From: Candidatus Thorarchaeota archaeon
Lineage (GTDB): Archaea > Asgardarchaeota > Thorarchaeia > Thorarchaeales > Thorarchaeaceae
DNA: 64,000 bases
Direction of reading: 5' to 3'
NCBI GenBank assembly: GCA_048882325.1
Contig: JBHLRS010000009.1
Location: 4,207 to 68,206, forward strand
The notes beneath the pieces were generated by a model. It saw only the letters and a program-made list of their open reading frames with translations, had not been told where the DNA came from and did not search any database. Both the position numbers and the translations under genes were made by a program. Below are positions 18,495 to 58,084 of this stretch, one piece after another. Numbering within the stretch: position 1 is the stretch's first letter; each line of letters starts with the position of its first letter.

Positions 18495-18611
18495 TGGTGC
18501 GGAGGGCGAGATTCGAACTCGCGGACTTCTACAAGATTACCCCGGTGCCGCAAGCGCGACTCCGTCAGGATCCTAAGTCCTGCGCCTTTAACCTGGCTTG
18601 GCTACCTCCGC
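18495..18611 (-). tRNA. tRNA-Leu (anticodon TAG), class II, with an oversized variable/T-arm region suggesting a ~28-30-nt intron. CCA is encoded.
   Basis: Acceptor GCGGAGG/CCTCCGC. Anticodon stem CAGGA/TCCTG with loop CTTAGGA. T-arm GCGAG-TTCGAAT-CTCGC. There are 43 nt between the anticodon stem and the T-stem, against an expected ~15. Total length is 117 nt. Confidence 0.65.
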
Positions 18612-33820: not shown

Positions 33821-34402
33821 TCATGAAACTGGTTGAGCAAGTATACTTGCACGCATAGCACTCTGAAAGAGATACTGAAATGCTTCCATAATGTTATGAC
33901 CCTCTCTAGCGACGCTCCTGAAGACAGGCACAGATGATGGAATTCTCAAGTGTGACCTAAGCTGTTCTTCTTGTATGGCACTTGGGAGATCTTGTTTGTT
34001 GAGACACACGATTAACGGCAGAGGTCGCTCCTCCTCTTCAATCATTGACATTAACTCATTCCAACTTGCCAGATTTTCATCAAGGAGATGTTCTTGAGAG
34101 TCTGCAACAAAAATCACTCCATCGGCCCCGACCAGCACGACTTCACGTGTAGACCTATAGAAGTCTTGACCTGTGGCAGACCAAACATGTGCATTGATTG
34201 TCCAACTATTACTCAGTGAAAAAGGAATAGTGCCAAAATCACAAAACATTGTTCTTCCAACAGTGTTCTCAATTGATGTCAGTTTCTCAGCATAGTCTAA
34301 TGAAGAAAACAGCCAACGAATCGAGGTTGTTTTTCCACTCATTGCAGGTCCAAAGAAGACTATCTTGAGTCCCACCGTACGATTGCCATAGTCGATTATC
34401 AC
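33821..34402 (-). CDS. MglA-like Ras-superfamily small GTPase.
   Basis: G1 IVFFGPAMSGKTT. RTMFCDF as in MglA RTLFFDF. Switch II TGQDFYRS...VGADGVIFVADSQ parallels MglA's PGQVFYDAS...KGVDGVVFVADSQ. G4 is NKQD. Confidence 0.75.
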   Translation of the reverse strand: MIIDYGNRTVGLKIVFFGPAMSGKTTSIRWLFSSLDYAEKLTSIENTVGRTMFCDFGTIPFSLSNSWTINAHVWSATGQDFYRSTREVVLVGADGVIFVADSQEHLLDENLASWNELMSMIEEEERPLPLIVCLNKQDLPSAIQEEQLRSHLRIPSSVPVFRSVAREGHNIMEAFQYLFQSAMRASILAQPVS

Positions 34403-34417
34403 TTATCTGACCCCCAG

Positions 34418-35338
34418 TCATGTTCCCCACATGCTGTCTACCCACGCTCCGAGTCCCGACAAAGCTCCGCTTTTTACACAATCAGAGAAATCTTCATGCC
34501 ATTCAGCTCTTATGAATTGAATCAAATCAGGAAGCTCTCCTCCATCCCATCCAATGGCTTCATAGAGGTTTCTCTCTGTCAATGTTGTGGATGCGCCAAG
34601 TTCCCTAGCTAGACGAATTCTTGACAATAGAGTGACTGCTCTACGGGCTGCATGAACATAGTTGTTTATCTCTTCTTCAAACACATCTTGTGTGAGTTTC
34701 TCTGACTCGTCATCTAGTTTCAGAACAGCATTGAGAATGTGCTCTGAAACTTTGAGTCCACGAAGTGACTTAGTGAGGAGTCGTCTGATACGTTCTAGAG
34801 ATTGTTTCTTTCTCACCAGGATCTTGTTCACAATTTTCTTCTCAACCTCAAGACTGCTATTTGATGGTCTAACAAGTGAGAAAGTAATGGATGATGGTGA
34901 ACTCACTCTTAATATTCCACAGTTGCCTGAATTTTTGAGAATATGAGCGGTTACATCTTGGAGCGTACTTTCAGTTACTTGTACACCTAGCACTGTGAAA
35001 CCGAGAGGTACAGCAAGGATCCAACCTGCAAAGTGTGAGATTCTATCCATTGCTAGTCGAAGATTCCCTGAGAGACCACAAACAATAGTCCTACTCACCT
35101 CATAGTTGTGTTTTTCCTCCTCCCATACTGCGAGAATCTCGGATTCGGAAGTGAAATCACGCCAGAACACAAGTTTGTGTCGATGAGGACAGAGAGTAGT
35201 CAGACTCTCTGTGATATCATCTACTAGTTCGATATCCTCACCTGCGACAATCACTGGCATCCGTTCCAGTAATGCATTCAATAGAAGAGGAAATTGGTCG
35301 CCCATCAACTCGATTAATTTCATGATTGAGTATGTCAT
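34418..35338 (-). CDS. Hypothetical 306-aa protein in the MglA-like operon, with a possible Roadblock-like N-terminal segment.
   Basis: It sits between the tandem-Roadblock gene (ATGA overlap at 35335-35338) and the GTPase gene (15-nt gap). The MPVIVAGEDIELVDDI segment loosely resembles the Roadblock G-x-x-G...D-G strand. There is no P-loop. Confidence 0.45.
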   Translation of the reverse strand: MTYSIMKLIELMGDQFPLLLNALLERMPVIVAGEDIELVDDITESLTTLCPHRHKLVFWRDFTSESEILAVWEEEKHNYEVSRTIVCGLSGNLRLAMDRISHFAGWILAVPLGFTVLGVQVTESTLQDVTAHILKNSGNCGILRVSSPSSITFSLVRPSNSSLEVEKKIVNKILVRKKQSLERIRRLLTKSLRGLKVSEHILNAVLKLDDESEKLTQDVFEEEINNYVHAARRAVTLLSRIRLARELGASTTLTERNLYEAIGWDGGELPDLIQFIRAEWHEDFSDCVKSGALSGLGAWVDSMWGT

Positions 35339-36282
35339 GGTTCTCTCCTCGTTAACATTAAGCCACCATCAGAACCTCCTGACAGCAGCAGCTCTTTCAG
35401 ATCATCTGGAACTGCGGGTTTCACTGCAGAAGCGGCAGCTAAAACTCTTCGTATCTCCTCAATGTAGTGTTTCAGTAACAGTCTCATCAAACCGAGTTTC
35501 TGGCTATCTTTATCCACCCACAGGCTAAACACGCCATTTGGAACAGCATAGATGAAATGGCGAGTTTCAGCTGTTTCACAGAGAACGGTCTGTAATGAGC
35601 TGTTCCGGAGTGTTCGTACTACTCGTTCTGACGCATCATGAAGTGCAAAAGACATTGCAGCCAATCGGTCGTTAGTAAACCCTTCTAATGAAACTCGGAC
35701 TCCACCACTTAATGAAAGAAACACGGATCCAATATTAGGAATGCAGTCATGTACTTGGCGTAAAAGAGCTCTGAGACTAAGTGCTTGTGAGCGATCAAGG
35801 GAAATCATGGAGCGTGATACACCATAACTTGTATCACGACCCTCTGCCACAGCAAACCCTTGAAGTACTTTCTGAGTTTCGTCGATACTATAAGAACGGA
35901 GTGGAGGTAATCTTCCGTCTACATGTTCTCTCAGAAGAAAAGAAAGTCTAGATAGATTATCCTTCATCTCAATAAATAATGCAGCTAGATTAACTCTGGG
36001 TGCTGTTGTTACTGTCAGAAAATAGTCTGGATCATTTGGCAACGAAGCAAGAAAGACCTTCGATGTATCAGACTCCATCAGTAGATAATTGAAATCACCA
36101 TGTATGAGTTTAGCCACTCCGAAGATTGCACAGGTCGATGATGCCACAGCAAAGACTTCATCCTTGCTGAACCATACTCCTGCGCTTGCAACGGGGAGTC
36201 CATCTTTTTGGATTAAAACGACATTCTCAACACCGGTGATGGCTTTTATGTTCTGGAGAGTTTCAGTCAATTCGTCGCTCAA
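35335..36282 (-). CDS. Tandem Roadblock/LC7-domain protein (MglB-like pseudo-dimer).
   Basis: First repeat: LQNIKAITGVENVVLIQKDGLPVASAG...FAVASSTCAIFG. Second repeat: ALLRQVHDCIPNIGSVFLSLSGGVRVSLEG...RLAAMSFALHDASERVV. Confidence 0.65.
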   Translation of the reverse strand: MSDELTETLQNIKAITGVENVVLIQKDGLPVASAGVWFSKDEVFAVASSTCAIFGVAKLIHGDFNYLLMESDTSKVFLASLPNDPDYFLTVTTAPRVNLAALFIEMKDNLSRLSFLLREHVDGRLPPLRSYSIDETQKVLQGFAVAEGRDTSYGVSRSMISLDRSQALSLRALLRQVHDCIPNIGSVFLSLSGGVRVSLEGFTNDRLAAMSFALHDASERVVRTLRNSSLQTVLCETAETRHFIYAVPNGVFSLWVDKDSQKLGLMRLLLKHYIEEIRRVLAAASAVKPAVPDDLKELLLSGGSDGGLMLTRREP

Positions 36283-43466: not shown

Positions 43467-46400
43467 TCACATCACAAAAGCGGAAACATTGTCATCCATT
43501 GTTTTTACTATTAGATTTCTTGGAGTGGTTTCACTTTCTTCAAGGTACTCAGACGCAGTGAGAACGCATACCACTTTGCTAGATTTGCATGTTCTACAGG
43601 CTATTTCACTATGTAAATTGAGAAGTGTATTCAGTTGCTGCTGATTTGGAAATATAACATAAGAAGTATCACCAACACAAAGGTCATAGTATCCATGATT
43701 TTTGGACACTTTGGAATGATGTTTCTTCAGCTCTTCCTCAATGGAGGTGATTGCCTTTTCCTTTAGATGCTTCAAGACTGATGAATTAACTAGCCAGAGT
43801 CCTTCTGTGAGCTCCATGAATTGTGATTCGCCGTTGACACGGAGGGCAATTAAGACCTCATCAGCTAACAGTTCTGTCAGAGCACGCTTCCCTTCCTCTA
43901 TGTTTAGTGGAGCGGACCTGCCCTTCAATGACTGAAGAGCTGTAGTTTCTATGAACTCAAGTAGCTCTTCCCATTTGACTTGTCCATTTGATATGTCAAC
44001 TAGGTCTTGAATCAGACCAAACCATAGCCGAATCTGAATCGCTCTATTGGTTGCGGATCCTACACCATGCATAGCTCCAATCAAATCTACTTTTTCATGT
44101 GATTCCTCCTCCACATCCTCTGCTAGCTGAGTCTGGACAATGGAAGCCTCTGACTGACCTGATTTACTCGCTAGTCCATCAATAATTGAATCTAAGGATC
44201 GTGGAAATGCAGAAACGACACTGACCTCATTGAATTCCTCAGATGAGTCCATCAGTTCCCTTAGTTTTGCAGCTGCAACGCTACCTCGTACAACCACAAT
44301 TAGCTCACTTACCCCATTCTGTAGTTTACTCATCTGTCCTCGAATTCTGTCTAGTGTTGAACCGATTGATGATGCTCGTAAGTGTTCAGGAATAACTATC
44401 ACTGCTCTGTCTTCAAGGACTATGTCCGGCCAATCCAGATTGGCTGACATTGAGGAGGTATTGTATTCTATCCCGAGTTTCTCATAGATATATTCAACAA
44501 TCACCCGTCTTACAGCACCTAGGGCTTTTCCTGGTAGAGCAAAAACAAATCCTCCATCTACAAGTGCTAATGCTTCTCTTTCAACACTACCCAATGATAC
44601 TAGATTTCGAATCGCTTCTGAAATGTCATCATCCACAACATTAGAGTCAAGTACAGAGAGAAGATTTCGGATTTCACTCTCTGTCGCCCAGCCCTCTGAT
44701 GCAAGGAATGCAACAACGTGATTTCCAAGTCTATCTATTCTGTTAAAGACAAGCGTCTGTGCTTTGATATCTTCAACCGCTTCAGTATTATCCAAGTCAC
44801 TAGTAATTGCCCCCTCATCCGATACAGTGGATTCGATAACAGAATCGATTTCACTTTCAGTAATGTCATTAGACGGTTGTTCGCTTTGACCCAATGTGTC
44901 TGGAAATCGTTGAGTGACAATTTCAAAAGTTTCAGTGTCAGGTATACTCATCAAGGCTCTCCCACGTTGTAGACTTCGGAGATACTGTTCTTGATCGCTA
45001 CTCAATGAAAGAAATCTTCCTCCAACATGACTGTCATAGGGTAAGCGAAACACTACCTTGGTAGATGTGTTTGCTAGGATGTTTGTAGAGATGTTGGGTC
45101 TAGTTGAAACTACAATAACACCTTGTCCTGTAGCCCGTTGTAGCATCACCATAGATTCACCAGTAGTTACATCAGCTGCAGAGTGTCTTGTATAACTCTC
45201 AGGAACAAGATTGCTTGCTTCTTCTAATACAACAACATGATGTAGACCTTCTGTGATACCTCGCTTCATGGCACTGTCGAAGATACGCTTCGCAACAAGA
45301 TTGTAAAGCAATCGAGCAGAATCCATTCCACCAACACGTGCAACATGAGAAAGATCAAGAATTACGCGTTTAGCAAGTAATTCTGAGAACTGAACTGATT
45401 CACCCTCTTTACCAAGGATTGATCCTAATGGTTCTCTGGTCAAAATCTCCAGACGGTTGATTAAAGCGTCTCTTGTCATATTCCCAGTCCGATCGTTACC
45501 TGATAATTCGTTAATTGCTGATATTAATGATTGAACCGAGTTTCCATGATTTAACGTTTCTGCGACTCGCATCACAGAGTCTCTGAGTAGTTTTTCCATT
45601 GCTGGAGAGAGTTCAGATGAATCACCTCTTTCATTCAATAACTCCTTCAAAATAACAAATGTTGAATGAGCGTGATTCTCATCATCAGCCATCTCAGGGT
45701 CAATAAGGTTAATGGAGAATGAAGTGTCAAGACCAGGTTTCAATACAAGAACTTCTGTTTCACTATGATTGACCAGACCATGATATTCAGACCCCTTTAC
45801 GTCAAATATCCACCAAGGTATAGAAGTCTTCATGCTCAGCTGAGCCATAAGATGCTTGACAAGTGTAGTCTTTCCACTGCCAGTTGCTCCTAAGATTGCA
45901 ATATGTTCTCTTAACCAATTCACCTTCAAGCCAACATCAGATAATCGTCGACCTCCGAACACAGTTTTACCAATAACTAGTTCATTGTCCACTAACTCTT
46001 TTGTGGGGACTGGAAAAACGGGAGCATGTTTCGGAGTGATTACAGGTAGCTGTTGAATTGGTGTATTCACAAGGGACGACAATTTTGCAATGTGAATTCG
46101 CTGACGTTTCAAATGGCGGCGAGTCAGTATTTTGAAGACATTCCGTTTTGAGTACTTATGATATTTCAGCTTGATGGAGTTTCCACCACCCCATATCGAG
46201 TGGATCAACCCTATTACTCCATCCATATCCACATCCATGCGGCTGTTTTTGGTCGGGCTTACTTTGAAATATACTGTAGAGTCAAACCATCCAGCTCCAT
46301 CCTGAATTTCTTCATAACGGGTCACCAATCTTTTCTTTGCTGCATGGTCTTGTAATGACTCCTCTTTTCGCTTCTCTTTTGATTGAATGCTCCTCCATTG

Positions 46401-47267
46401 ATTTTCAAGTGAACGCTTTTCTTTTCCAGGTTTAGCTGAAGAGAATACACAGGTCATACTTGTGGTATATCCCTGTTTAAGAGATGTCGAAAGGTATGTT
46501 CCAATCTGAGAAGCTTCTAGAGTTGGGAATACCCGTGGTTGTCCTTGCAGAGCTAGGAATCCCAGTAAGTCATTCCCATGCTTGATTTTCAGTTCTCTCG
46601 ATTCGAGGCAAATCCCATTTATGTGAGTAAGAGCAACAGATTCGAGAGAGTCACCCTCTAGAAGCTTTAATTCCACATTATTGAGAGATGACAAAAGAAT
46701 TGCTTCAGTCCGGGTTGCCTCTCTTCTCAATATCTCCTGTATCTGTTTTGACGTGTGACCGGTTGCTGTGATAAAGATACGTAGGAATGGCTCTCCATTT
46801 GTAACTCCAACCTCAAAAGCCATTGTTATTGATTTGTCCATTCCTGCTCTCATCGCAAGTAACATAGTTTCATTGTATCTCGGTTTTCCATTCTCATCTA
46901 GATACACCGAACCAGAAACTGACATAATATCAAGACAACATGTCCCAATCACAAAGTCATCGAGCTGAACAAGTAGTGTGCTGTCCTGAATCGATACTGA
47001 AGGATTCTGAAGACGAACTTTCTTCATAGTCAGGTAAGACCCAGTTATAACTGGTATAAGACACACAATCACTTCAACCATTATTTTTTGAGGGATAAAG
47101 GGTTGACTGAACAGTCCAATCAATGGTAGGAGGTAGACTAGTAGTAGATACAATCCCGATGCTATTGTACTAAACACCCAGACTATAGCTAACCATGATT
47201 TTGGTCGTCTATGCAAATCATGAGAAGCCACAGCTGTGTTCTCTCGTAGGGAAATACGAAATGGCAT
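43467..47267 (-). CDS. Giant 1266-aa membrane-anchored HerA/FtsK/VirB4-like (AAA_10/DUF87) ATPase with a long C-terminal extension.
   Basis: Two N-terminal TM helices (WLAIVWVFSTIASGLYLLLVYLLPLIGLF and VEVIVCLIPVITG). The ATPase core has Walker A AILGATGSGKTT and Walker B VVVLEEASNL. About 550 C-terminal residues with helix-turn-helix-like repeats follow. Confidence 0.7.
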   Translation of the reverse strand: MPFRISLRENTAVASHDLHRRPKSWLAIVWVFSTIASGLYLLLVYLLPLIGLFSQPFIPQKIMVEVIVCLIPVITGSYLTMKKVRLQNPSVSIQDSTLLVQLDDFVIGTCCLDIMSVSGSVYLDENGKPRYNETMLLAMRAGMDKSITMAFEVGVTNGEPFLRIFITATGHTSKQIQEILRREATRTEAILLSSLNNVELKLLEGDSLESVALTHINGICLESRELKIKHGNDLLGFLALQGQPRVFPTLEASQIGTYLSTSLKQGYTTSMTCVFSSAKPGKEKRSLENQWRSIQSKEKRKEESLQDHAAKKRLVTRYEEIQDGAGWFDSTVYFKVSPTKNSRMDVDMDGVIGLIHSIWGGGNSIKLKYHKYSKRNVFKILTRRHLKRQRIHIAKLSSLVNTPIQQLPVITPKHAPVFPVPTKELVDNELVIGKTVFGGRRLSDVGLKVNWLREHIAILGATGSGKTTLVKHLMAQLSMKTSIPWWIFDVKGSEYHGLVNHSETEVLVLKPGLDTSFSINLIDPEMADDENHAHSTFVILKELLNERGDSSELSPAMEKLLRDSVMRVAETLNHGNSVQSLISAINELSGNDRTGNMTRDALINRLEILTREPLGSILGKEGESVQFSELLAKRVILDLSHVARVGGMDSARLLYNLVAKRIFDSAMKRGITEGLHHVVVLEEASNLVPESYTRHSAADVTTGESMVMLQRATGQGVIVVSTRPNISTNILANTSTKVVFRLPYDSHVGGRFLSLSSDQEQYLRSLQRGRALMSIPDTETFEIVTQRFPDTLGQSEQPSNDITESEIDSVIESTVSDEGAITSDLDNTEAVEDIKAQTLVFNRIDRLGNHVVAFLASEGWATESEIRNLLSVLDSNVVDDDISEAIRNLVSLGSVEREALALVDGGFVFALPGKALGAVRRVIVEYIYEKLGIEYNTSSMSANLDWPDIVLEDRAVIVIPEHLRASSIGSTLDRIRGQMSKLQNGVSELIVVVRGSVAAAKLRELMDSSEEFNEVSVVSAFPRSLDSIIDGLASKSGQSEASIVQTQLAEDVEEESHEKVDLIGAMHGVGSATNRAIQIRLWFGLIQDLVDISNGQVKWEELLEFIETTALQSLKGRSAPLNIEEGKRALTELLADEVLIALRVNGESQFMELTEGLWLVNSSVLKHLKEKAITSIEEELKKHHSKVSKNHGYYDLCVGDTSYVIFPNQQQLNTLLNLHSEIACRTCKSSKVVCVLTASEYLEESETTPRNLIVKTMDDNVSAFVM

Positions 47268-47515
47268 CTACATCTTCCTCATCATACTAACTCTAGACCA
47301 AGAGAGATTGTTTTTGGAGTTGAACCATCGTACCTTTGTTGAGCATATGAACACCCCTAAACAAATCATCCAATACTATGCACTCTATAGGAGAATAAAA
47401 ACCCAGAAACAGAATGATGAACTGGTGACGAAACCCTAGAAGAGTGATTTCGGTACCTACCTCTCAAAATCCCTAGGGGGTATAGACAATCAAGAAATCA
47501 GACTGGTTCCCAATA

Positions 47516-49456
47516 ATGTTGCTTGTTCTACTCTTGATATCACTAACTACGTTGACGACTGAACCAATATCTGCAGAGGGCGAGATTGTGGTTGTTCGAG
47601 GAAACACTATCTTAATCACCGTCACACTTCTTCAGAATGGTAGCTTCGGAGAACCAGTACCAGACCAGTGGATACATTTCTTTGACCAGAGCTATAACTC
47701 GTTCTTAGGTTCTGAAAAGACAGATGCAAACGGTATCGCTTCACTTTCATGGGGCATTCCCATTGATCATGCACTTGGAATGACAACCATCAATGCAACA
47801 TTTTTGGGTAATGAGTCACTGTCACTAGCTCCGTCATATCAATGGAGTGTCTTGACAGTAGTTTCCTCTACAACTATCGAGATTGACCAGGTGCCTGATT
47901 CACTCGCCCCAGGAGATTTCTTATCATTCTTAGTTCACCTGACTGATGACACAGATAGTCCAATTGAGAACGCCTCTGTGAAAGTGTTTAAGGATTATAC
48001 ACCTATTGCTGTTGCTAAGACCAACTCATCAGGAGATATTCACTTCAAGATTGATTGCAACAGCACATGGATAACACTAGGAAACAATGACATAAGAGTT
48101 GTATTTGAACAAGATTTGGCAAAGCACCTCAATGGATCTGAGTTTACGTTCATTGTCGATATATCAAAAATACCTACGTTTCTGCTTCCTCATGGTTGGT
48201 ATCCAACTAATGTCACTCTTGGTGAATTTGTTGATTTGTATATTGAGCTCTCTGAAACAGCTAATCCCATGCCGAATGAGGCTATCCAAGTCCTCCTAGA
48301 TGATTCTCCTCTAGTTCTTGTTACCTCTAACAATTCTGGAATCGCCCGTGCTCTGTTGGATATCGATGAACGATTCACTCTTGGGGTTCATATCCTGCAA
48401 TTTTTGTACAATGGTACATCGAGGTACTCTGTATCAAATTACGAATATCCTTTATCTATAACCAGCCCAGCACAGTTGAGCATTGAAGTTCCGGAATCTG
48501 CTTCGATAGGCTCAATCGTCGATCTTGAAATTGCAATTTCGGATTCATTAGGTCGTCCGATTCCTGATTCGCTTATCACACTAGTTGACACTACATCTGA
48601 TCAGACCTTTACGGTTCCTTCGAGCTCAACTAAAACAGTTATCAATTTTCAATATGTGGTGCAAGGTCCTACCGGCACCCACATTCTCAATGTAGAAGTG
48701 TCAGAGAATCTATTTGTGACGAACGGAAATTGCAGTGCTACCTTTGTTGCATGGTCCAAGCCTGTTATGTTCATTCTCAACGTCAATGTGGATCACTATG
48801 CCTCTCCCAATCAAGAGATCTTTTTTGAATTACAGATGACTGATTGGAATGGAAATTGTTCCTATAGACCTCTCTATCTTATGTTAGATGGCCAGGTCTA
48901 TCTATCAAGAACGACAGGCATAGATGGGAAACTTACTCTTGCTCTTACTGCTCCACTGATTGAAAAGGTGTACAATATATCAATGGTCTATGAGGGAAAT
49001 AATACACTCTTTGAAAGTCCAACAAAGCTCGATTATGACCTTCATGTGACTAGTCAAATGCCTGTGCGACTTGAACTCGATTCCTATGAGGTTAATGCTG
49101 CACGACATGAACTAGATATACGTCTAATATTGAAAGCATTCAATGGCTCTACACTACAAGGAGTGAATGTGAATTTTGTCTGGTTAGATTCACACTTCGA
49201 CTCCCAAACAAGCGATGGGGGATTGGTTATTCTTCATCTTAGAGTTCCTGCAATAAATGGTATCTATGTCTTATACTATGAAATTGAGGACGCAGCATCA
49301 ATAGTTCCAACAAATGGAACATACCTGATTGAGATTACGATTTCTGATGTAATGTCACTACAGGGAATTGGTGTTGTTGGTCTAGCAATAGCTCTTTTTG
49401 CTTCAGTTGGAATCTCAGCCGTACCAATCCTAAGACGAAGATATCTTGTAGGATAA
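47516..49456 (+). CDS. Secreted, membrane-anchored surface protein that is beta-rich and heavily N-glycosylation-sequon-rich.
   Basis: An N-terminal signal peptide (MLLVLLLISLTTLTTEPISAEG). Many N-x-S/T sequons. A C-terminal TM anchor plus basic tail (GIGVVGLAIALFASVGISAVPILRRRYLVG). Confidence 0.6.
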   Translation: MLLVLLLISLTTLTTEPISAEGEIVVVRGNTILITVTLLQNGSFGEPVPDQWIHFFDQSYNSFLGSEKTDANGIASLSWGIPIDHALGMTTINATFLGNESLSLAPSYQWSVLTVVSSTTIEIDQVPDSLAPGDFLSFLVHLTDDTDSPIENASVKVFKDYTPIAVAKTNSSGDIHFKIDCNSTWITLGNNDIRVVFEQDLAKHLNGSEFTFIVDISKIPTFLLPHGWYPTNVTLGEFVDLYIELSETANPMPNEAIQVLLDDSPLVLVTSNNSGIARALLDIDERFTLGVHILQFLYNGTSRYSVSNYEYPLSITSPAQLSIEVPESASIGSIVDLEIAISDSLGRPIPDSLITLVDTTSDQTFTVPSSSTKTVINFQYVVQGPTGTHILNVEVSENLFVTNGNCSATFVAWSKPVMFILNVNVDHYASPNQEIFFELQMTDWNGNCSYRPLYLMLDGQVYLSRTTGIDGKLTLALTAPLIEKVYNISMVYEGNNTLFESPTKLDYDLHVTSQMPVRLELDSYEVNAARHELDIRLILKAFNGSTLQGVNVNFVWLDSHFDSQTSDGGLVILHLRVPAINGIYVLYYEIEDAASIVPTNGTYLIEITISDVMSLQGIGVVGLAIALFASVGISAVPILRRRYLVG

Positions 49457-49466
49457 AGACAAGAAG

Positions 49467-49575
49467 TGGTGCTCCGGCCGGGATTCGAACCCGGGTCGGG
49501 GGATCGAGAGTCCCCCATGCTGGGCCGGACTACAGTCGGTATCATTGTAAGGAATATACAATGCTCTACCGGAGC
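49467..49575 (-). tRNA. tRNA-Glu (anticodon CTC) with a ~33-nt intron in the D-arm region (non-canonical). CCA is encoded.
   Basis: Acceptor GCTCCGG/CCGGAGC. The D-arm 3' part TAGTCCGGCC matches archaeal tRNA-Glu. Anticodon stem GGGGA/TCCCC with loop CTCTCGA. T-arm CCGGG-TTCGAAT-CCCGG. An extra segment after position ~9 contains the hairpin ATTGTA-TATTCCT-TACAAT. Confidence 0.65.
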
Positions 49576-49663
49576 CGTGAATGGATTGCCAGTCCGGAGC
49601 GCGAGAAGGCTCGTTTGGAATTATGCAAATAAGCCTTTCCCCGCAACATGAGGACTAAAGAAT

Positions 49664-49984
49664 CTAAGGTGCACTGAATAATTGAGTTAGACTACTCCAA
49701 CTATCCTGTAATAACTGCAGTAATCCTCCCACAACATCTTGTGCCCACCCTGTGGCTTGAAGGATGACCGCAATAACAATAGAAACTGTGACAACTGCAA
49801 GCCCAAGGAGCAGACTCTCCTCAACTAGCGGTCCTCCCTGTTCATTACGAATTAAACCATCATCCTTTGTCAAAGATATCCACCTTGAACTGATGTTTTG
49901 CTGGTTCCTTTTAAGGTCCCCAAAAGATCTGGACCACTCTATGCTTCTGACTTGATGAATTTCATCGGGTGTCCCTTTGACCAC
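49664..49984 (-). CDS. Small membrane protein, possibly a class-III signal-peptide (type IV pilin-like) precursor.
   Basis: A single hydrophobic helix SLLLGLAVVTVSIVIAVILQA preceded by EQGG-PLVEE. If a TTG start near 49873 is used, this helix lies near the N-terminus as in prepilins. The ORF-track start overlaps the upstream ATPase gene by 46 nt. Confidence 0.35.
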   Translation of the reverse strand: MVKGTPDEIHQVRSIEWSRSFGDLKRNQQNISSRWISLTKDDGLIRNEQGGPLVEESLLLGLAVVTVSIVIAVILQATGWAQDVVGGLLQLLQDSWSSLTQLFSAP

Positions 49985-51633
49985 ATCTCTTCGCTTATTG
50001 TGTGAAAACTCATGGGATTGCTATTTAGGCGGATGATTTCAGTCAGATTCCTTAGAGCTGGAATATGGCTTTTGACCCCGGACTCTCTTGCATGGTTTAG
50101 AAAAGCTCCATCATCTGCCCAGTCCTCATTAATACCTTCGATGGAATCATAGATTTTATTGAGACCTGAGAATACAACTAATCCGTTTACCACCCTTCGT
50201 CGTATTTCTGAGATTTCGCTCACGATTCGTTTAGACTCCCCTGGTTTCGGTCTTTCTAAAGTAACAATGATATCCAAGAGCGCAATGTTGTCTTCTTGAA
50301 TTCTATGGCCGAGTTTCCACCTAGAAATAAGACTGGACGCCGACTCGCTGTGACATGTTTGAATAGTACGAAGACCTGCTATAATAGCCTGAAAAAGGGC
50401 GTTGCTGTGTTCTGCAGTCTGAATCTCTCCTAGAATGAGATAGTCTGGCGACCGATGGAGACATTTGATTATTTCATCACTTTTGTTAAATTTCGTCAAT
50501 TGCTCATCCATGGGGTCAACTCTGAAACGTACCTGATGGTGATCTTTCTGTGGTCTGCTTTCAATGGCATCTTCAATGTAGATTTTTCTCCACCACTTTG
50601 GTGTAGTCATATCCAAGGCATTCAACAAAGTTGTTTTTCCAGTACCTGGACCTCCAGTTATAGTAATGTTGAACCTGCATGAAACAGCGAAGACTAGAAT
50701 TGCTGCAACATCAGATGTCATAGTTTCATTCTCTATCAATTCACTAATAGTAAACGGATTGTTCCTCGCTCGACGAATTTCGAGATGTAGTCCATCTGGA
50801 CTTAATGGTGGCATACTTGCAGAGAAACGAAGTGCGGCATCTTGAATACGTATATCCATTTTGAGAGAGGGGTTGCTTCTATCTAGGTGGAGATTGCTTT
50901 CAGCGCGAATTAGAGTGATAATTTTTGAAACATCCTGCTTATAAAAAGTGAAATCTGTTATACATCTACCATATCGTTGATGATCAAAATAGATTGGTAC
51001 TCCAGGACTATCAAGGTATATTTCCTCTACCCAATCATCATGGATAAGGGGCATAAGTACGCCAAGGATGTTTCGACGATGAGCGACGATCTCAGCGAGT
51101 CGCATCCGAGTTGCTTCATTCATCTCAGGAATTAAGTCCAAGATGTGAATGGAAATATCCTTGATTGCCTGATTTAATTTCTGTGTTATTCCCACCTTCA
51201 AAGAGTTAGTTCTGTTTCCAGATTGGAAAGGTTTCTCAATCAAATCTTCAACAAGTGAGTTTTCTAGTGCGGTTCTGACCAATGGAACAGTTGTGTATCG
51301 TGCTTGATTATTTTCTGTCTGATGAAAAACAGATAGATGAGAGCCCACTTTGTAAATTGCTAAGATATCGTCTAACATGTCAACTAGGTGCATGTTAGAA
51401 CCAATAAAGACAGTTTCCCAACCCTCAGTTCGCCATGATGGTTCAGGTAATTTCAGACTCTTCAGAGTACAGAAGTGAAACAAACCTCTTCCAGTTTCAA
51501 CTATGATAATCTGTGATTTTTCGTTTCCAGATTCCTTGATATGGTTGAGCCTCTGACAACCAAAATCACTCCTCTGAGAACACTTTTCACAACGTCCAAC
51601 AGGACATTGGACAACATGGATATCTGAATTCAA
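49939..51633 (-). CDS. GspE/FlaI/VirB11-family secretion/pilus-assembly ATPase with an N-terminal Cys4 zinc ribbon.
   Basis: Walker A ITITGGPGTGKTTLLNAL. A Walker B/Asp box PDYLILGEIQTAEH. A His box IQTCHSESA. The N-terminus carries CPVGRCEKCSQRSDFGCQ. Confidence 0.75.
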   Translation of the reverse strand: MNSDIHVVQCPVGRCEKCSQRSDFGCQRLNHIKESGNEKSQIIIVETGRGLFHFCTLKSLKLPEPSWRTEGWETVFIGSNMHLVDMLDDILAIYKVGSHLSVFHQTENNQARYTTVPLVRTALENSLVEDLIEKPFQSGNRTNSLKVGITQKLNQAIKDISIHILDLIPEMNEATRMRLAEIVAHRRNILGVLMPLIHDDWVEEIYLDSPGVPIYFDHQRYGRCITDFTFYKQDVSKIITLIRAESNLHLDRSNPSLKMDIRIQDAALRFSASMPPLSPDGLHLEIRRARNNPFTISELIENETMTSDVAAILVFAVSCRFNITITGGPGTGKTTLLNALDMTTPKWWRKIYIEDAIESRPQKDHHQVRFRVDPMDEQLTKFNKSDEIIKCLHRSPDYLILGEIQTAEHSNALFQAIIAGLRTIQTCHSESASSLISRWKLGHRIQEDNIALLDIIVTLERPKPGESKRIVSEISEIRRRVVNGLVVFSGLNKIYDSIEGINEDWADDGAFLNHARESGVKSHIPALRNLTEIIRLNSNPMSFHTISEEMWSKGHPMKFIKSEA

Positions 51634-51702
51634 CTAGTAGAGCACCTCATGATTTCTACATCTTATTCAGACAAATCCTACATAATCTCCTAGACATTCA
51701 AG

Positions 51703-52740
51703 TCACTGGGCTTGTGATACTTCGATGACCTTTTTCATCATTCCAAAGTGATCTCTGATACTATACTCGGCCACCTCGGTTGCAATTGAAGCAAGCTTTT
51801 GTGTTAGCACGGCTCTCCTTCCATATTGTATCGCAATCAGTCGGTCACTCGCATAGGCAGCTGAAACTGTAAATATGAACGGATTTCTTCCGCCGCGTTT
51901 TGAAGCAGGTATTATTTTGAGAACTTCGAGTATCTTGTTTCTAAGAGCGTTCTCATAGTCCTTTGGTTCCCAACCTCGTGATTGAACCTTACTGACTACT
52001 CTTGGGTTGTTCATCAACATTGAAAGCACTCTTGGAACATAGTCCTCTGGTTTTCGGATTTCCGGTGAGTAGCCTGTGAGCGACTTGAGCCTGAGTGCTT
52101 CTCGCACAATTGCTCTCACATTGACTCGGTGTCCGCATTTTTCAAACACATCAGCTATTTCATCAAGTGTTATCGGAGCCTCCTCTTTGAACTCCCTTAC
52201 AGCCATGAGAAGACACACAGCAATCAACAGTATGTTATTACTGACGTTTCCTGCTGCTTCATTCACCACTTTCTTGTATAGATACGCAGTCCGATCGCGA
52301 ACTTGCTCATTGATCATGAGTAGCTTTGACACATGATTGAGAGTTCTAAGAGCTCTGTATTTTGCCTCATTCTTGCCAATTCTGATTCTGGTGCTGTATA
52401 TTGTTTTCAGCCGCTTGAATTTCTTCTGCATTCTTCCTGAGAGTGCCTGTCCTTGTGCATCTTGAAAATACCGATCTTTATGGAAGCCAATGTAGCTGCC
52501 AAGACCGTCCACAATATGCATTCGGTTTCCTAATGATACATACATAGTTGCATCAGGGGAATCGCCAGTGGGTCGTTCGCCCATCTGATATGTAGGCAAA
52601 ACGTATTCTCTAGAAAGCACCAAACCGCATTCAGCACATACTATGTGTCCCTGACTAGTGACCAAAAAACCACTACAGTCAGGACAGGATTTTGAATTCG
52701 TTAAACGAGATTCACATGTTCCATCAGTCAAAAACCACAC
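51703..52740 (-). CDS. tfb: Transcription initiation factor IIB (TFB).
   Basis: N-terminal zinc ribbon CPDCSG...CAECG followed by two cyclin-like repeats. Typical length of 345 aa. Confidence 0.9.
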   Translation of the reverse strand: MWFLTDGTCESRLTNSKSCPDCSGFLVTSQGHIVCAECGLVLSREYVLPTYQMGERPTGDSPDATMYVSLGNRMHIVDGLGSYIGFHKDRYFQDAQGQALSGRMQKKFKRLKTIYSTRIRIGKNEAKYRALRTLNHVSKLLMINEQVRDRTAYLYKKVVNEAAGNVSNNILLIAVCLLMAVREFKEEAPITLDEIADVFEKCGHRVNVRAIVREALRLKSLTGYSPEIRKPEDYVPRVLSMLMNNPRVVSKVQSRGWEPKDYENALRNKILEVLKIIPASKRGGRNPFIFTVSAAYASDRLIAIQYGRRAVLTQKLASIATEVAEYSIRDHFGMMKKVIEVSQAQ

Positions 52741-52897
52741 CCATTAGAGATGTGCACAATCATTCCTAACTAAGTTTCAGATACCAATTATACATTCACA
52801 GAGAATAACAATCTGTTCAAGTAGACTTTGACTGATATTGAGCGGTCTTTGTCGGTCTGGTCAGAAAGAGAGGTGACCGAAAGTAATCTTAATGGGA

Positions 52898-53263
52898 TTA
52901 CATAAAAGCCAGAAAGAACTTCTCTGAGTTGAAAACGTTACTCTGACTTGGAGTTGGTTTTCCTAGTGTGAAGACTAGTCGCAATCCACCTACGGATCCA
53001 ATTACTTCAAGACCATTTTTCTCAGTCTTTTTGAAGACGCCACTCTCTACATAGAGCTTTGCTTGTTCACCTTTTGTAATTGGCTTAGAATCGATGATAA
53101 CAGTGATTGAATCATTAGCATTCAGTGTGTCACAAAGTGCATCCGGAAGCTCGAGTGAGAGTGTTGCTCCATCACTTTTCGAGGAAACCTTCAATAACTT
53201 CAATCTTCTCGTTTCCGTTTCCTCAACAGAGTCAATGACTGCAGTCTTAAGCCTAATTACCAT
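52898..53263 (-). CDS. Hypothetical 121-aa beta-rich protein, possibly OB-fold.
   Basis: An ORF with alternating beta-strand pattern. It has its own intergenic spacing upstream and downstream. No motifs were recognised. Confidence 0.35.
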   Translation of the reverse strand: MVIRLKTAVIDSVEETETRRLKLLKVSSKSDGATLSLELPDALCDTLNANDSITVIIDSKPITKGEQAKLYVESGVFKKTEKNGLEVIGSVGGLRLVFTLGKPTPSQSNVFNSEKFFLAFM

Positions 53264-53385: not shown

Positions 53386-55176
53386 GTGAATCGGAAAGTG
53401 GTAGCACTCGCCCCCCTCTCTTTGCTTCTAGTCACATGTCTTGTTGTTCCAGTTTCAGCATTCTACTTTGACTTTCAGTCCTTCGAAACTGACAAGTTGG
53501 TATATGAAGTTGGAGAAACGATTAACATGGTCGCAAAGTTAATCGCAGATTTCAGTGACGAGGGGTGGTGCAACGTATCATTTGGAGTTGTTACAGATCT
53601 TGGTCCTTCTTTTGCGGAAGGATACTCTATTCCTCCATCTCCATTGGTCCGTTACCTAAATTCGTCATATACAATTCTTCCAGAGCATACTTCGCCCACT
53701 GAAACAGGTGTACAAGCTTTTGTCATCTTTACTGTTCAGATTTTCGATGTAGGAGAACAAAGTGAGGGTGATAACATCCTAATCACAATTAACAGAGGAC
53801 ATCTCAATGCTTTTCCACAAATTCCTCTCATTGCGCAGTATGGATTGAATACATCACTCCCATTGAAAATTGCTAGTATTCATAATAGTGATGTTGTCTA
53901 CTCTGGCGAGTCTGTTACATTGCATGTGGAGAATTCAACTTCACATACTGTGTTACATACTAATGTAACCACAACTTCCGAAGGAATGGTACACCTCAAT
54001 TGGAGTGACTCGTTTGGTGCTCCTGGTCTGTATAATCTGACTGTTTCCAGCGATGGAAATGAAGACTTTCTACCACTAGCTGATTCATTCGAACTAACAG
54101 TTCTTCCAGCGCCTTCAAATTTAACCGCAATCTCTACACCCGGCACAGTATATTGTCAAGCACCTGATGGTAGTCATGTTCAACTTGCTGAGATTATAGT
54201 TGAGCATACGGATGTAGATTCAATCCCTATCAATGATAGTCTAGTACGATGGACTGCAAGCTTTGGATCTGGTTCGTTGGCCAAATTGGGTGCTGGTCTG
54301 TATTCTGGTATGATTCCCTTCAATACAAGTCCAGGGTCTTATACCATCAATATCACATCCACTAATCCTCAATATCAGAGTAGTGGAACTGAAGTCATTG
54401 TGGATGTCCTAGCAAATATATTGCAATTCACTCCAGTACAGTCATCTTGGAATGTGACAAGAGGTGACAATGTGACTGTTGAGTTCCTTCTGGAATCAAC
54501 CCTTGATTGGAATCAATCAATACAACTAGATTTCATAGATGAAAAAACGCAGTTCTCAGTAACATCAAGTGTCCTGCCGGGCATTCCTAAGTTTCAACAA
54601 ATCCCAATCTGGCACAACATCTCTGTAGGACAACATATCGTTGATATTTCCTCAACAAGTGAGTACTATGAGTTTACTACTACTCCTCAAATTGAATTGG
54701 TTGCTATTGGGACAATGAATGTTTCAATGTTGATACAAACTGTATACTATAGTGAAACATTAGATTTCAATCTAGATATCGTTGATGATGATAATCAACT
54801 GGTTTCAAATGCTGAGGTTTCTATTTTCTGTGATGAGGATATCACGTCTTTTGCGACCACCGGTTATGTCAATACGAGTGCAAACCAAACTGTAGGATTG
54901 CCGTTATGGATTCAACTAGGCATACACAATCTTACCTTTATTGTCAACAGTCAATACTATGAGTCGATTATCTATATCGTAACCATCAAAGTCTGGATGC
55001 GGACTAACCTCACCATTGTTATATCAAGTGATTCGAATTCAATTGCTGAAGATACTCAGTTTGACATCACACTAAGTATCTCATCTGGATTAATCATGAG
55101 TCCTCCACCAATTTTGTGTAATGGAGTTACCTCTACAATACCTTTCACAGCTCGACTCACTTCATTTGACAATTGA
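53386..55176 (+). CDS. Secreted surface (glyco)protein that is beta-rich with very many N-x-S/T sequons.
   Basis: A signal peptide (MNRKVVALAPLSLLLVTCLVVPVSAFY). More than 25 N-x-S/T sequons (NVT, NTS, NLT, NIS, NQS, ...). No C-terminal anchor was seen. Its 3' end convergently overlaps korA by 120 nt. Confidence 0.5.
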   Translation: MNRKVVALAPLSLLLVTCLVVPVSAFYFDFQSFETDKLVYEVGETINMVAKLIADFSDEGWCNVSFGVVTDLGPSFAEGYSIPPSPLVRYLNSSYTILPEHTSPTETGVQAFVIFTVQIFDVGEQSEGDNILITINRGHLNAFPQIPLIAQYGLNTSLPLKIASIHNSDVVYSGESVTLHVENSTSHTVLHTNVTTTSEGMVHLNWSDSFGAPGLYNLTVSSDGNEDFLPLADSFELTVLPAPSNLTAISTPGTVYCQAPDGSHVQLAEIIVEHTDVDSIPINDSLVRWTASFGSGSLAKLGAGLYSGMIPFNTSPGSYTINITSTNPQYQSSGTEVIVDVLANILQFTPVQSSWNVTRGDNVTVEFLLESTLDWNQSIQLDFIDEKTQFSVTSSVLPGIPKFQQIPIWHNISVGQHIVDISSTSEYYEFTTTPQIELVAIGTMNVSMLIQTVYYSETLDFNLDIVDDDNQLVSNAEVSIFCDEDITSFATTGYVNTSANQTVGLPLWIQLGIHNLTFIVNSQYYESIIYIVTIKVWMRTNLTIVISSDSNSIAEDTQFDITLSISSGLIMSPPPILCNGVTSTIPFTARLTSFDN

Positions 55177-56551: not shown

Positions 56552-57793
56552 GTGCCTCAGCGAAATTGCATTTGGACTGTCATGCCGCACGACTATGTTG
56601 AAGATGAACTCAGTAGGCGTAGTGTCTTCAAATCTGAACAATTCCTATCGATAGACTATGTGCCAGAGAGTCTTCCCCATCGACAGTCCGAGATTAGAAC
56701 ACTTGTTCAAAGTTTCAAGACTTTGATCAGTTCACCGGGGCGCACTAGTCACAAGTTCATCATTGAAGGTCCTGTGGGAACAGGGAAGACAGCGGTGGCT
56801 AAGCGGTTTTCTGAACAGATGATTCAAGCTGCAAAGCGGAGAAATATCAGACTCCACAGTATCCATATTAACTGCCGTGTTAACAAGACCGCATATCTCG
56901 TTTTTCTTAGAGCTCTAAGGGAGTTCAAACCGAAATTTCCTAGACGTGGTCATTCTCCTGACGAGTTACTACAGATGCTAGTTGAAGTCCTTGATGAGGA
57001 GGATCGCTATCTCCTTCTGATTCTTGACGAACTTGATTACTTCATTAGGCAAAGGGGATCAGACATTCTCTATGACCTCACAAGACTAATGGATGACCGA
57101 CTAAATGCCACACAGCGCCTCTCAATAATAGGAATTGGTCGTAAGATTCCTCTTGATGATGAAATTCTGGATTCTAGTACACGTAGTACGCTCCAGCGTA
57201 ATGTCCTCCGTTTCTCGAGGTATAATCGCGATGCGCTTTCTGACATCCTCACCGACCGTGTAGATATGGCATTTGAGAGTAAGGCAGTCATGGATGAAAC
57301 GATTCAAGTAATCTGTGATATTGCAGCTGAACATGGTGATGCACGATATGCAATTGAACTCCTCTGGCGTGCAGGAAAACGTGCAGATCGTGACCGAGTA
57401 GATGTTGTAATTCCTGACTATGCCCGTCGTGCAAAAGCTGACACACATCCAGAACTCAGAAAAGAGATTTTTGCTGCATTGCCAACACAACACAAACTTC
57501 TGCTCCTAGCTGCAGCAAGACAGCTTAGGGAAATTCGTAGTGCCTATGTCACCATAGGCGAAGTCGAAGAGATGTATCGTACAATTTGTGAAGAGTATTA
57601 TGAAGAACCTAGAGCTCATACTCAGATTTGGGAATGGGTACAAGATCTTCACTCTCATGGTATAATTGATACGAAAAAATCAGGGACAGGACAAAGAGGA
57701 CAGACAACTCTCATAGGCTTTTCAGACGTTCCAGCTGAGATGTTGGAGCAATTTCTCTCAGGATTACTTGATACATCTAAGGAGGCTGTGTGA
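56552..57793 (+). CDS. cdc6: Second Orc1/Cdc6 paralog.
   Basis: Walker A IEGPVGTGKTAVAK and Walker B LILDELD. The sensor and wH regions are collinear with the first paralog. Confidence 0.85.
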   Translation: MPQRNCIWTVMPHDYVEDELSRRSVFKSEQFLSIDYVPESLPHRQSEIRTLVQSFKTLISSPGRTSHKFIIEGPVGTGKTAVAKRFSEQMIQAAKRRNIRLHSIHINCRVNKTAYLVFLRALREFKPKFPRRGHSPDELLQMLVEVLDEEDRYLLLILDELDYFIRQRGSDILYDLTRLMDDRLNATQRLSIIGIGRKIPLDDEILDSSTRSTLQRNVLRFSRYNRDALSDILTDRVDMAFESKAVMDETIQVICDIAAEHGDARYAIELLWRAGKRADRDRVDVVIPDYARRAKADTHPELRKEIFAALPTQHKLLLLAAARQLREIRSAYVTIGEVEEMYRTICEEYYEEPRAHTQIWEWVQDLHSHGIIDTKKSGTGQRGQTTLIGFSDVPAEMLEQFLSGLLDTSKEAV

Positions 57794-57799
57794 AAATAG

Positions 57800-58084
57800 A
57801 TGAACGACGATAATGTGTCAAAGATTCCTATAGAGGAGATATTCTCGTCAAGAGGTCGAATCAAAATTCTCAAGGAACTGGCTGCTTCAAATGAGCTGAA
57901 TATCTCAGAATTATGTAGGAGAGTAGATCTCAATCATAGCTCTACTAAATCACATCTAGAAGTGTTGTTGAGTTCGGGTCTGATAGAAGAAAAGAAATTT
58001 GGCAGAATCAAAATTTACCGATACAAGATTGAGGACCTCAGAGCACGTTCATTAAGAAGTTTGTTTAATCTTTGGGAGTCATGA
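57800..58084 (+). CDS. Small winged-helix DNA-binding protein (ArsR/Lrs14-like).
   Basis: The HTH pattern ISELCRRVDLNHSSTKSHLEVLLSSGLIEEKK. 94 aa. Confidence 0.45.
   Translation: MNDDNVSKIPIEEIFSSRGRIKILKELAASNELNISELCRRVDLNHSSTKSHLEVLLSSGLIEEKKFGRIKIYRYKIEDLRARSLRSLFNLWES

Follow-up and report, generated by a model that had tools for sequence, protein, structure and literature searches.

A Thorarchaeota gene cluster that combines a predicted Tad/Flp-like pilus module with a membrane-anchored VirB4-like ATPase

The stretch of 64,000 nucleotides (nt) analysed in this study, hereafter termed the window, stems from a Thorarchaeota archaeon (contig JBHLRS010000009.1, positions 4,207 to 68,206 of the forward strand) and contains a gene cluster that is composed of two modules; loci elsewhere carry labels of the type L037. 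The first, a module of the pilus type (module A, about 49664-53263), encodes an Rpb8-like protein, a paralog of the transcription factor TFIIB/TFB, an ATPase of the TadA/GspE family with an N-terminal four-cysteine motif (Cys4) and a candidate for a Flp-like prepilin. In the second (module B, 43467-49456), the genes for an ATPase of 1266 amino acids (aa) and an immunoglobulin (Ig)-like surface glycoprotein are transcribed divergently. An original prediction, made without database searches, had described the region as a candidate DNA-transfer or surface-filament system centred on this giant ATPase. Every gene that it named is confirmed in position and identity by open reading frames (ORFs), translations and family scans, although its gene set is incomplete, lacking two members of the ATPase/pilin module, namely the genes for the TFB paralog and the Rpb8-like protein. 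On balance, we slightly favour the view that the cluster encodes two linked and chromosomally fixed envelope modules, a Tad/Flp-like pilus and a pair consisting of a VirB4-like ATPase and an Ig-like protein, which would work together, presumably on DNA as substrate.

The ATPase of module A (564 aa, 49939..51633, minus strand) is a member of the TadA/GspE/FlaI (T2SSE) family. It scores 75.9 bits against the Pfam model PF00437 (cut-off 24.9), its best match in NCBIfam is the TadA family (8.7e-30) followed by FlaI, and its best matches in the PDB are GspE of A. fulgidus (2oap, 1e-25), CpaF and FlaI. The Walker A motif GGPGTGKTT (50629-50655), the Walker B motif DYLILGE (50425-50445) and the His box TCHS (50347-50358), all on the minus strand, are conserved, as are, across Thorarchaeota, the residues Cys10, Cys15, Cys18 and Cys26 of the N-terminal Cys4 motif (51556-51606, minus strand). 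The protein is 100% identical to that of a Thorarchaeota metagenome-assembled genome at NCBI. The earlier assignment to the GspE/FlaI/VirB11 family with a Cys4 motif therefore holds with respect to the family, whereas the motif has precedents, Cys-rich N-terminal domains being known already from archaeal secretion ATPases of the subclades 4D and 4F (PMC4858521).

The adjacent prepilin candidate (49664..49873, minus strand) starts with a TTG codon and consists of 69 aa, which include a single transmembrane (TM) helix, a Trp at the membrane interface and, C-terminally, an amphipathic helix. The pilin-like layout proposed originally is thus retained, whereas the length of 106 aa is not, as the respective ORF (49664-49984) is over-extended and both the called genes of relatives and the conservation begin at the TTG at 49873. 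A variable leader precedes the invariant sequence G-P-L-V-E-E-S-LLLGLAVV..., with conservation starting at [GA]-G-P-L-V-E-E, and the Thorarchaeota protein displays a class III-like pattern (..[QKR]-G↓G-P-L-V-E-E.., the arrow marking the predicted cleavage site). In orthologs from other Asgard archaea these signals are canonical, as in ...RNKRG↓SPLVEQGLLLGLA... and ...KNKRA↓SPLIEEGILIGLA..., where position -2 is basic, -1 is G/A and +5 is Glu (..KR-G/A↓S-P-L-[VI]-E..). By family and PDB searches the small protein is not recognisably VirB2-like.

Upstream of the ATPase gene, the TFB paralog (345 aa, 51703..52740, minus strand) combines a Zn ribbon with at least one cyclin fold. These elements are reflected in a match to the Pfam TFIIB repeat (24.6 bits, cut-off 23.6) and, in a profile comparison with the PDB, in matches to the first cyclin fold of TFIIB (E=2.9e-7) and to the Zn ribbon of P. 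furiosus TFB (E=2.4e-4). On the model of canonical TFB (NF001658) the protein reaches 58 bits compared to a cut-off of 384 and we therefore regard it as a divergent paralog. No other protein of the cluster is as well conserved, and in Asgard loci its gene is always linked to that of the ATPase. In keeping its Zn ribbon and cyclin fold, it differs from TFB3, which is truncated. TFB3 is a TFB paralog that controls the Ups and Ced systems (PMC4858521; PMC11823120; PMC11868833), and TFIIB homologs are the commonest regulators in archaeal type IV pilus (T4P) loci (PMC4858521). The neighbouring gene (52898..53263, minus strand) encodes an Rpb8/Rpo8-like protein of 121 aa, a candidate subunit of RNA polymerase, which has no match in Pfam or NCBIfam. 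The best PDB match of a profile of 19 orthologs is Rpb8 of S. pombe, at a weak E value of 0.035, which covers 92 of the 121 positions and aligns the GGL motif. This gene is found beside the TFB paralog in Thorarchaeota only. In one Thorarchaeota subgroup that includes a complete chromosome (L023, L026, L028 and L031), the Rpb8-like and TFB-like genes are separated by an inserted gene of opposite orientation, which encodes about 333 aa with nine predicted TM segments (about 3073-4074 in L031).

The function of module A can be approached from its relatives in other Asgard archaea. The best 120 matches of three protein searches for relatives were filled by Thorarchaeota, and scanning metagenomes with just one protein from Helarchaeota gave no hits. 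A metagenome scan with an alignment of TFB-like proteins identified 80 loci, 32 of them non-Thorarchaeota (TFB-like identity 35-47%, GC content 0.25-0.51), where the trio of TFB-like protein, ATPase and small protein is found in three orders (pilin>TFB>ATPase; TFB>ATPase>...>pilin; ATPase< pilin>TFB). In 12 non-Thorarchaeota loci the ATPase gene is followed by two genes for T2SSF-like membrane proteins, several of which reach the Pfam T2SSF model (E=1.6e-5, 25.3 bits, cut-off 25.2), and in one (L141) it adjoins a prepilin peptidase of the Peptidase_A24 family (E=3.7e-8). Since orthologous Asgard loci carry T2SSF-like genes, a prepilin peptidase and small proteins with class III signals, we conclude from sequence comparison that ATPase, prepilin candidate and TFB paralog constitute a predicted Tad/Flp-like T4P system with a dedicated TFB paralog, which is found in several Asgard lineages. 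The original prediction had seen in the ATPase a VirB11-like component of a minimal type IV secretion system (T4SS) or pilus machine. The T2SSF-like and peptidase genes place it in a Tad-like T4P module of its own and not with a T4SS as VirB11 partner. The likeness to Tad/Flp-type (Epd-like) archaeal pili concerns the T2SSE ATPase family, the short prepilin (mature length about 55 aa), whose predicted cleavage site is preceded by G/A and followed by Glu at +5, and, in orthologous Asgard loci, the T2SSF-like pairs and the A24 peptidase. In contrast to such pili, genes for platform and peptidase are missing from the Thorarchaeota loci, a Cys4 motif is found at the N-terminus of the ATPase, the TFB paralog is an obligatory neighbour and the pilin is nearly invariant and without a match to a pilin family in Pfam.

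Several observations weigh against a pilus. A T2SSF/TadC-like protein and a prepilin peptidase are both absent from the window as well as from every Thorarchaeota locus examined, as foreseen by the original prediction with respect to a polytopic PilC/TadC-like protein, and apart from the surface protein no ORF in the window contains three or more TM segments. A working pilus would therefore need genes from elsewhere, unless the module differs in this lineage. The small protein of Thorarchaeota contains Gly at +1 and Pro at +2, both of which are excluded by what we take to be the FlaFind motif, and its Lokiarchaeota ortholog has Phe at -1. The 69-aa protein matches no pilin family in Pfam and no pilin in the PDB, and only one ortholog matches Flp1_like, weakly (E=0.047). 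Finally, across Thorarchaeota loci the small protein and the TFB paralog show the highest identities in the cluster (68-94% and 68-96%, respectively), and such near-invariance is unusual for adhesive pili. For this genome, the pilus assignment is weakened mainly by the missing T2SSF and A24 homologs and by the lack of a match to any pilin family model.

Part of these features would also be accounted for if ATPase, TFB paralog and small membrane protein formed a transcription-related device, where the ATPase might remodel or sequester TFB or a component of RNA polymerase at the membrane. A transcription-related role has been suggested for subclade 4D of the Thermoproteales, which combines a Cys-rich secretion ATPase (arCOG05558) with a membrane protein, a TFIIB homolog (arCOG05559) and RPB8 (Makarova, Koonin, Albers 2016, PMC4858521). 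By this published description, the gene set is the same as here, with an ATPase carrying a Cys-rich N-domain, a TFIIB homolog, Rpb8 and a small membrane partner, and both the unusual conservation of TFB paralog and small protein and the absence of TadC and peptidase genes from Thorarchaeota loci would fit. However, the ATPases of subclade 4D contain about 340 aa and no C-terminal domain, compared to 564 aa in Thorarchaeota, and their partner spans the membrane four to five times, with neither a pilin nor a secreted protein in its vicinity, whereas the present cluster encodes a protein with a single TM helix and a class III-like signal together with two secreted proteins. Moreover, the T2SSF-like genes and the prepilin peptidase of orthologous Asgard loci, the canonical class III signals of the small proteins in other lineages and the common occurrence of TFIIB homologs in ordinary archaeal T4P loci (PMC4858521) all argue against such a device, which we consider highly improbable, and we retain the assignment of module A as pilus system.

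The giant ATPase of module B (1266 aa, 43467..47267, minus strand) was characterized by Pfam, Foldseek and TM prediction as a membrane-anchored protein of the VirB4/HerA superfamily. Two predicted TM helices (TM1, 47109-47165, residues 35-53; TM2, 47043-47099, residues 57-75) precede a VirB4-like N-domain (about 46008-47015) and a motor domain (44901-45980) with the Walker A motif GATGSGKT (45867-45890, residues 460-467) and the Walker B motif HHVVVLEEA (45216-45242, residues 676-684). An acidic linker (44742-44900; 14 D/E vs 2 K/R) leads to two C-terminal modules, the first composed of a winged helix and an alpha/beta part (44157-44741), the second of a winged helix and a beta-rich part with a conserved Cys4 motif (43470-44057), all of these features residing on the minus strand. 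The C-terminal extension thus comprises about 480 aa and not about 550 aa as thought initially. With respect to the proposed DUF87/AAA_10-type core, the DUF87/HerA central domain is recognized (PF01935, 58.9 bits, cut-off 23.2, E=1e-15), whereas the Pfam scan finds no match to AAA_10. A sequence search detects HerA in the PDB (4d2i, E=7.8e-5), and the top rows in NCBIfam are CedD (58.6 bits, cut-off 600), HerA (equivalog NF040937, 37.7 bits, cut-off 800), VirB4 (TIGR00929, 31 bits, cut-off 643) and CedB (28.7 bits, cut-off 700), all far below their cut-offs. The match to FtsK_SpoIIIE in Pfam is also below cut-off (19.2 vs 24 bits) and confined to the P-loop region. Judged by the family models used, it thus falls outside VirB4, HerA, CedB/D and FtsK.

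The relationship to VirB4 is reflected in the fold. In an AlphaFold2 model that covers residues 67-1266, with a mean predicted local distance difference test score (pLDDT) of 66 and values of mostly 70-90 in the folded domains, Foldseek finds the best PDB match, at E=1.2e-16 and over about 800-860 aligned columns, with full-length TrwK/VirB4 from the T4SS of R388, followed by HerA (E=1.5e-10) and TrwB/VirD4 (E=7.5e-6). The TM-score to TrwK/VirB4 is low (0.3) because of the domain orientation. The model predicts the VirB4 fold to be present inclusive of its N-terminal domain, and the two predicted N-terminal TM helices would provide a VirB3-like membrane anchor. These results bear out the membrane-anchored ATPase of the HerA/VirB4 superfamily that had been proposed, and the protein is not assigned to chromosomal HerA, in view of its low score on the HerA equivalog and a fold that is nearer to VirB4. 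HerA differs also in being soluble, and its partners NurA, Mre11 and Rad50 are not among the neighbours in any locus examined. When modelled separately (pLDDT 71), residues 836-1266 fold into the two modules with a winged helix at the start of each, beyond which no significant structural match is found. The last beta-rich subdomain (residues ~1190-1240; 43470-43700, minus strand) contains four invariant cysteines (YYDLC ... CRTC ... C), which may form a metal site, and an invariant FPNQQQL sequence, and shows no significant structural match.

The succession of domains recalls FtsK/SpoIIIE and TraB of Streptomyces, where an N-terminal TM anchor, a motor of the FtsK-HerA superfamily, a flexible linker and a C-terminal winged helix follow each other. 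On the basis of this shared layout of anchor, motor, linker and winged helix, which suggests a nucleic acid as substrate, we infer by analogy that the giant ATPase would translocate a macromolecule, most likely DNA. The same parallel could be taken to indicate a housekeeping chromosome translocase similar to FtsK, which would be guided by its winged helices in segregation or division and be unrelated to filaments. Such a role would be in line with the occurrence of the gene in 57 Thorarchaeota species genomes and with its location close to Orc1/Cdc6 in Thorarchaeota and Lokiarchaeota. We nevertheless regard it as very unlikely, as the motor belongs to the HerA/VirB4 branch, with FtsK_SpoIIIE remaining below cut-off, and as the fold, with its extra N-domain, is closest to VirB4. 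In addition, two modules of winged helix and alpha/beta type are found in place of the single gamma domain of FtsK, these modules are not conserved outside Thorarchaeota, and the gene is constantly paired with that of a secreted Ig-like protein and located near a pilin-like gene.

The distribution of the giant ATPase distinguishes a core that is shared with other Asgard archaea from an extension confined to Thorarchaeota. In a scan with one genome per species, the gene was detected in 57 species genomes, nearly all labelled Thorarchaeota (46-79% identity), among them a complete chromosome of 2.58 Mb. Conservation over the full length, at 56-81% identity, is found in many proteins that their sources name Thorarchaeota. 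An exhaustive search of cluster representatives at 50% identity retrieved the full-length architecture in about nine clusters only, all with at least 43% identity, and the N-domain with the ATPase in many larger or smaller proteins of 25-39% identity, which are assigned by their sources to Helarchaeota, Njordarchaeota, Odinarchaeota, Lokiarchaeota and Freyarchaeota. Most of these homologs have two to six predicted N-terminal TM helices, and a few representatives none or one; there are four to six in Helarchaeota and six in Lokiarchaeota, compared to two here. Upstream of the gene, two DNA blocks on the minus strand are conserved across Thorarchaeota, the TATA-like TTTTAAYCTCCTA (47388-47400) and, about 30 nt downstream, GGGGWGTTCWTATG (47344-47357), which contains a Shine-Dalgarno-like GGAG and an ATG. 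This ATG opens a mini-ORF of 1-17 codons, which in several species consists of start and stop only, and the region may serve as regulatory leader of the giant gene. Neither block occurs elsewhere in the window, and a promoter motif common to the cluster was not found.

The partner of the giant ATPase, a secreted and C-terminally anchored Ig-like glycoprotein (646 aa, 47516..49456, plus strand), contains a Big_3_5 Ig-like domain (Pfam, E=9e-16), 16 N-x-S/T sequons and a C-terminal TM helix (residues 618-636), in agreement with the divergently encoded, sequon-rich surface protein of the original prediction. Relatives possess a GGAGG box and an earlier start, which adds a basic n-region (47516 and upstream, ~47480-47515), and to judge from them the true start probably precedes the annotated ATG; the upstream in-frame codons here (..IKKSDWFPI-M) include no canonical start codon. 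A second, beta-rich secreted glycoprotein (p596; 596 aa, 53386..55176, plus strand) with 20 sequons is conserved in the block, and a weak homolog adjoins the ATPase in Helarchaeota. Its ORF and the gene of the POR alpha-subunit (minus strand) overlap convergently by 121 nt at their 3' ends (55056-55176), one of which may be mis-called.

The window is chromosomal DNA and not a mobile element, as follows from the same locus being found across species, from its housekeeping flanks and from the lack of relatives in IMG/VR. The GC content amounts to 41-46% over the window, without a compositional break, and the flanking genes include Orc1/Cdc6, POR, HDAC, ribosomal protein S10, GlmS and CTP synthase. 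No relatives of the cluster were found in IMG/VR, and plasmids contain only generic DUF87 cores of 24-28% identity. No mobile-element signature was found at the cluster, with an integrase scan of the window that was not exhaustive. A conjugative or integrated element, or alternatively a HerA-based anti-phage defence, might be suspected from the presence of a tRNA gene inside the cluster and from matches of the ATPase core to HerA/mad8, which are weak and stem from PADLOC, and to TrwB_AAD_bind. This tRNA-Glu(CUC) (about 49471..49575, minus strand) is real, as predicted, and its gene is longer than the 71 nt of the truncated ARAGORN call (49471-49541). Rfam aligns model positions 9-63 only (26.7 bits, under the gathering score) because position 8 is followed by a non-canonical intron of about 33 nt. 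GCTCCGG, the 5' strand of the acceptor stem, is found 33 nt upstream and pairs with CCGGAGC when the pre-tRNA is folded. In Thorarchaeota loci the tRNA is located at the same place, where ARAGORN detected it in one of five loci scanned (L037). An attachment-site remnant was rejected, the broken acceptor stem in the ARAGORN and Rfam calls being due to the intron. With an intact, intron-containing tRNA at a constant place, the same locus between housekeeping flanks in more than 50 species, an even composition, no relatives in IMG/VR and no close ones on plasmids, a mobile or conjugative element was rejected. The same applies to an anti-phage HerA, as the PADLOC matches are weak and limited to the P-loop and as no effector partner of the Sir2, NurA or DUF4297 type is seen, and we give either explanation hardly any credence.

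Further features of the surroundings were noted. Another intron-containing tRNA, identified by Rfam (57 bits) and missed by ARAGORN, is located at 18498-18611 (minus strand). The Orc1/Cdc6 gene is followed by a small gene for an ArsR-type helix-turn-helix (HTH) protein (56552-58081, plus strand; HTH ortholog at 57830-58081). In Lokiarchaeota, as in several further Asgard loci, this pair lies at most 10 kb from the module, and the HTH gene of Helarchaeota adjoins the pilin-like gene. A replication origin may be located in the vicinity of the cluster. At 33821-36282 (minus strand), an operon-like triple encodes a Roadblock/LC7 protein (315 aa), a 306-aa protein and an Arf/Ras-like small GTPase (193 aa), which in this window is separated from the cluster by 7 kb with housekeeping genes in between. 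Orthologous triples adjoin the TFB/ATPase/pilin module or a giant-like gene in Helarchaeota (L064, L069, L074), in a contig of Odinarchaeota (L071), in further Asgard loci (L079-L083) and in part of the Thorarchaeota loci (L014, L117, L124, L126, L127, L131). The combination of Roadblock protein and GTPase recalls the control of pili by MglA/MglB. Roadblock proteins are frequent in archaeal T4P loci (PMC4858521).

A relationship between the two modules is suggested by their linkage. In a tblastn comparison of the window proteins with the species loci, the order POR, 596-aa protein, Rpb8-like, TFB-like, ATPase, 69-aa protein, Ig-like and giant was found in all Thorarchaeota species loci, about 50 in number, that extend far enough to show it. 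The co-conservation of neighbours in relatives, which had been set beforehand as a test, was thus borne out. The same order prevails in nearly all Thorarchaeota-type metagenome loci, with L137 and L149 being different. In L037, the genes from that of the 596-aa protein through that of the 69-aa protein have been transferred as an inverted block to a position 3.6 kb beyond the giant gene, and in L137 the genes for giant, Ig-like and 69-aa protein follow each other beside an inverted TFB-like/ATPase pair, the pieces remaining within 4 kb in both cases. In three Helarchaeota contigs (L064, L073, L074), the TFB-like ortholog (41% identity, E=5e-80) is located directly upstream of the giant-like gene. 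In L064, the pilin-like gene follows 2.3 kb and the ATPase ortholog, preceded by the weak homolog of the 596-aa protein, 8 kb downstream of the giant-like gene, and in L074 the pilin-like gene is found at a similar distance of about 2.3 kb, the contig of L073 being too short to show pilin or ATPase. Helarchaeota possess at least two paralogous sets (L064 and L069), each with a giant-like ATPase, a triple of Roadblock, unknown protein and GTPase and a p596 homolog. On a Lokiarchaeota contig, a pilin-like ORF of 56 aa lies 0.5 kb from the giant-like gene in divergent orientation.

These findings have to be weighed against the possibility that the modules are unrelated neighbours by inherited synteny, with a Tad-like pilus and its TFB on one side, a separate VirB4/Ced-like ATPase with its surface protein on the other and the Rpb8-like protein as an ordinary subunit of RNA polymerase. 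The block is located near Orc1/Cdc6 in a strongly syntenic region and adjacency within Thorarchaeota alone is therefore weak functional evidence. Most trio loci outside Thorarchaeota contain no giant-like gene within 10 kb, a distant archaeal contig with 31% GC (L062) harbours a giant-like gene divergently paired with an Ig-like homolog in absence of the pilus module, and the adjacency of the Rpb8-like gene is limited to Thorarchaeota. The linkage has, however, outlasted two independent rearrangements in Thorarchaeota (L037, L137), it reappears in different order in the three contigs of Helarchaeota, and it extends to Lokiarchaeota, where the pilin-like gene adjoins the giant-like gene, and the linkage in the latter two lineages argues for a real link between the modules. 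We thus judge an accidental neighbourhood to be unlikely, though deserving of serious attention, and regard functional coupling as slightly more probable than not.

In the coupled system that we slightly favour, the hexameric ATPase of the TadA family would power the assembly of the 69-aa prepilin, which we infer to be cut after the G/A at -1, leaving Glu at +5, with the mature protein polymerising into a thin Flp-like filament. Transcription of these genes would be directed by the TFB paralog, much as Ups and Ced are under the control of TFB3. The giant ATPase would act as hexameric translocase that moves DNA or another polymer across the membrane at the base of or alongside the filament, and the Ig-like proteins would serve passage through the envelope or contact. 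The pilus would offer contact or a conduit and the giant ATPase translocation, comparable to the Ups pilus and the Ced importer of Sulfolobales. Of the two functions proposed originally, the filament is in line with the predicted Tad-like module, whereas DNA transfer would be plausible by analogy with Ups/Ced/TFB3 and FtsK.

A comparable combination is found in the Ced/Ted systems for DNA import in Crenarchaeota, with VirB4-like CedB/TedB, VirD4-like CedD and the pilins CedA1/TedC (PMC11868833, PMC11823120, PMC9905601). Like these chromosomal and domesticated systems, the cluster contains a membrane-anchored ATPase of the HerA/VirB4 superfamily, for which CedD is the top row in NCBIfam, and, as for Ced/Ted and Ups, a small hydrophobic pilin-like gene nearby, an associated TFB paralog and a T4P module. 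Unlike in Ced/Ted, the score on the CedD model is a small fraction of its cut-off, a polytopic CedA/VirB6-like protein is not found here, the pilin is Flp-like rather than VirB2-like and the giant ATPase is about twice as long, with its winged-helix C-terminal modules. The cluster differs from a T4SS based on VirB4 in that a polytopic VirB6-type protein is absent from the window and VirB6, VirB8, VirB2 and VirD4 partners were not encountered. In a more far-reaching version of the coupling, the TadB/C platform of an ancestral Asgard Flp-type pilus might in Thorarchaeota have been displaced by, or coupled to, the giant ATPase, resulting in a hybrid of T4P and T4SS in which a Flp-like filament and an FtsK-like DNA motor guided by winged helices would act as one chromosomal machine for DNA exchange under the TFB paralog, a scenario that appears quite unlikely.

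Each part of the cluster belongs to a known superfamily, and the link of TFIIB homologs to archaeal T4P loci is already known. In the full-text literature searched, we found no description of the Asgard trio, of an Asgard-wide family of membrane VirB4-like ATPases, of its winged-helix form in Thorarchaeota or of the juxtaposition of the two modules, and nothing on the means by which Asgard archaea assemble filaments on their surface or exchange DNA. The trio of TFB paralog, TadA-like ATPase with Cys4 motif and Flp-like prepilin candidate provides a compact marker that recurs in several Asgard lineages, and the giant protein defines an Asgard-wide family of membrane-anchored VirB4-like ATPases, which has gained winged-helix modules in Thorarchaeota. 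The link between a secretion ATPase and a member of the TFIIB family, which is seen in Thermoproteales and Asgard archaea, constitutes an unexplained repeated association. If the two modules cooperate, the logic of Ups, Ced and TFB3 in Sulfolobales would extend to Asgard archaea. As the latter are the closest archaeal relatives of eukaryotes, the cluster would, if this is true, point to specific genes that may mediate contact between cells or gene flow in the lineage that gave rise to eukaryotes.

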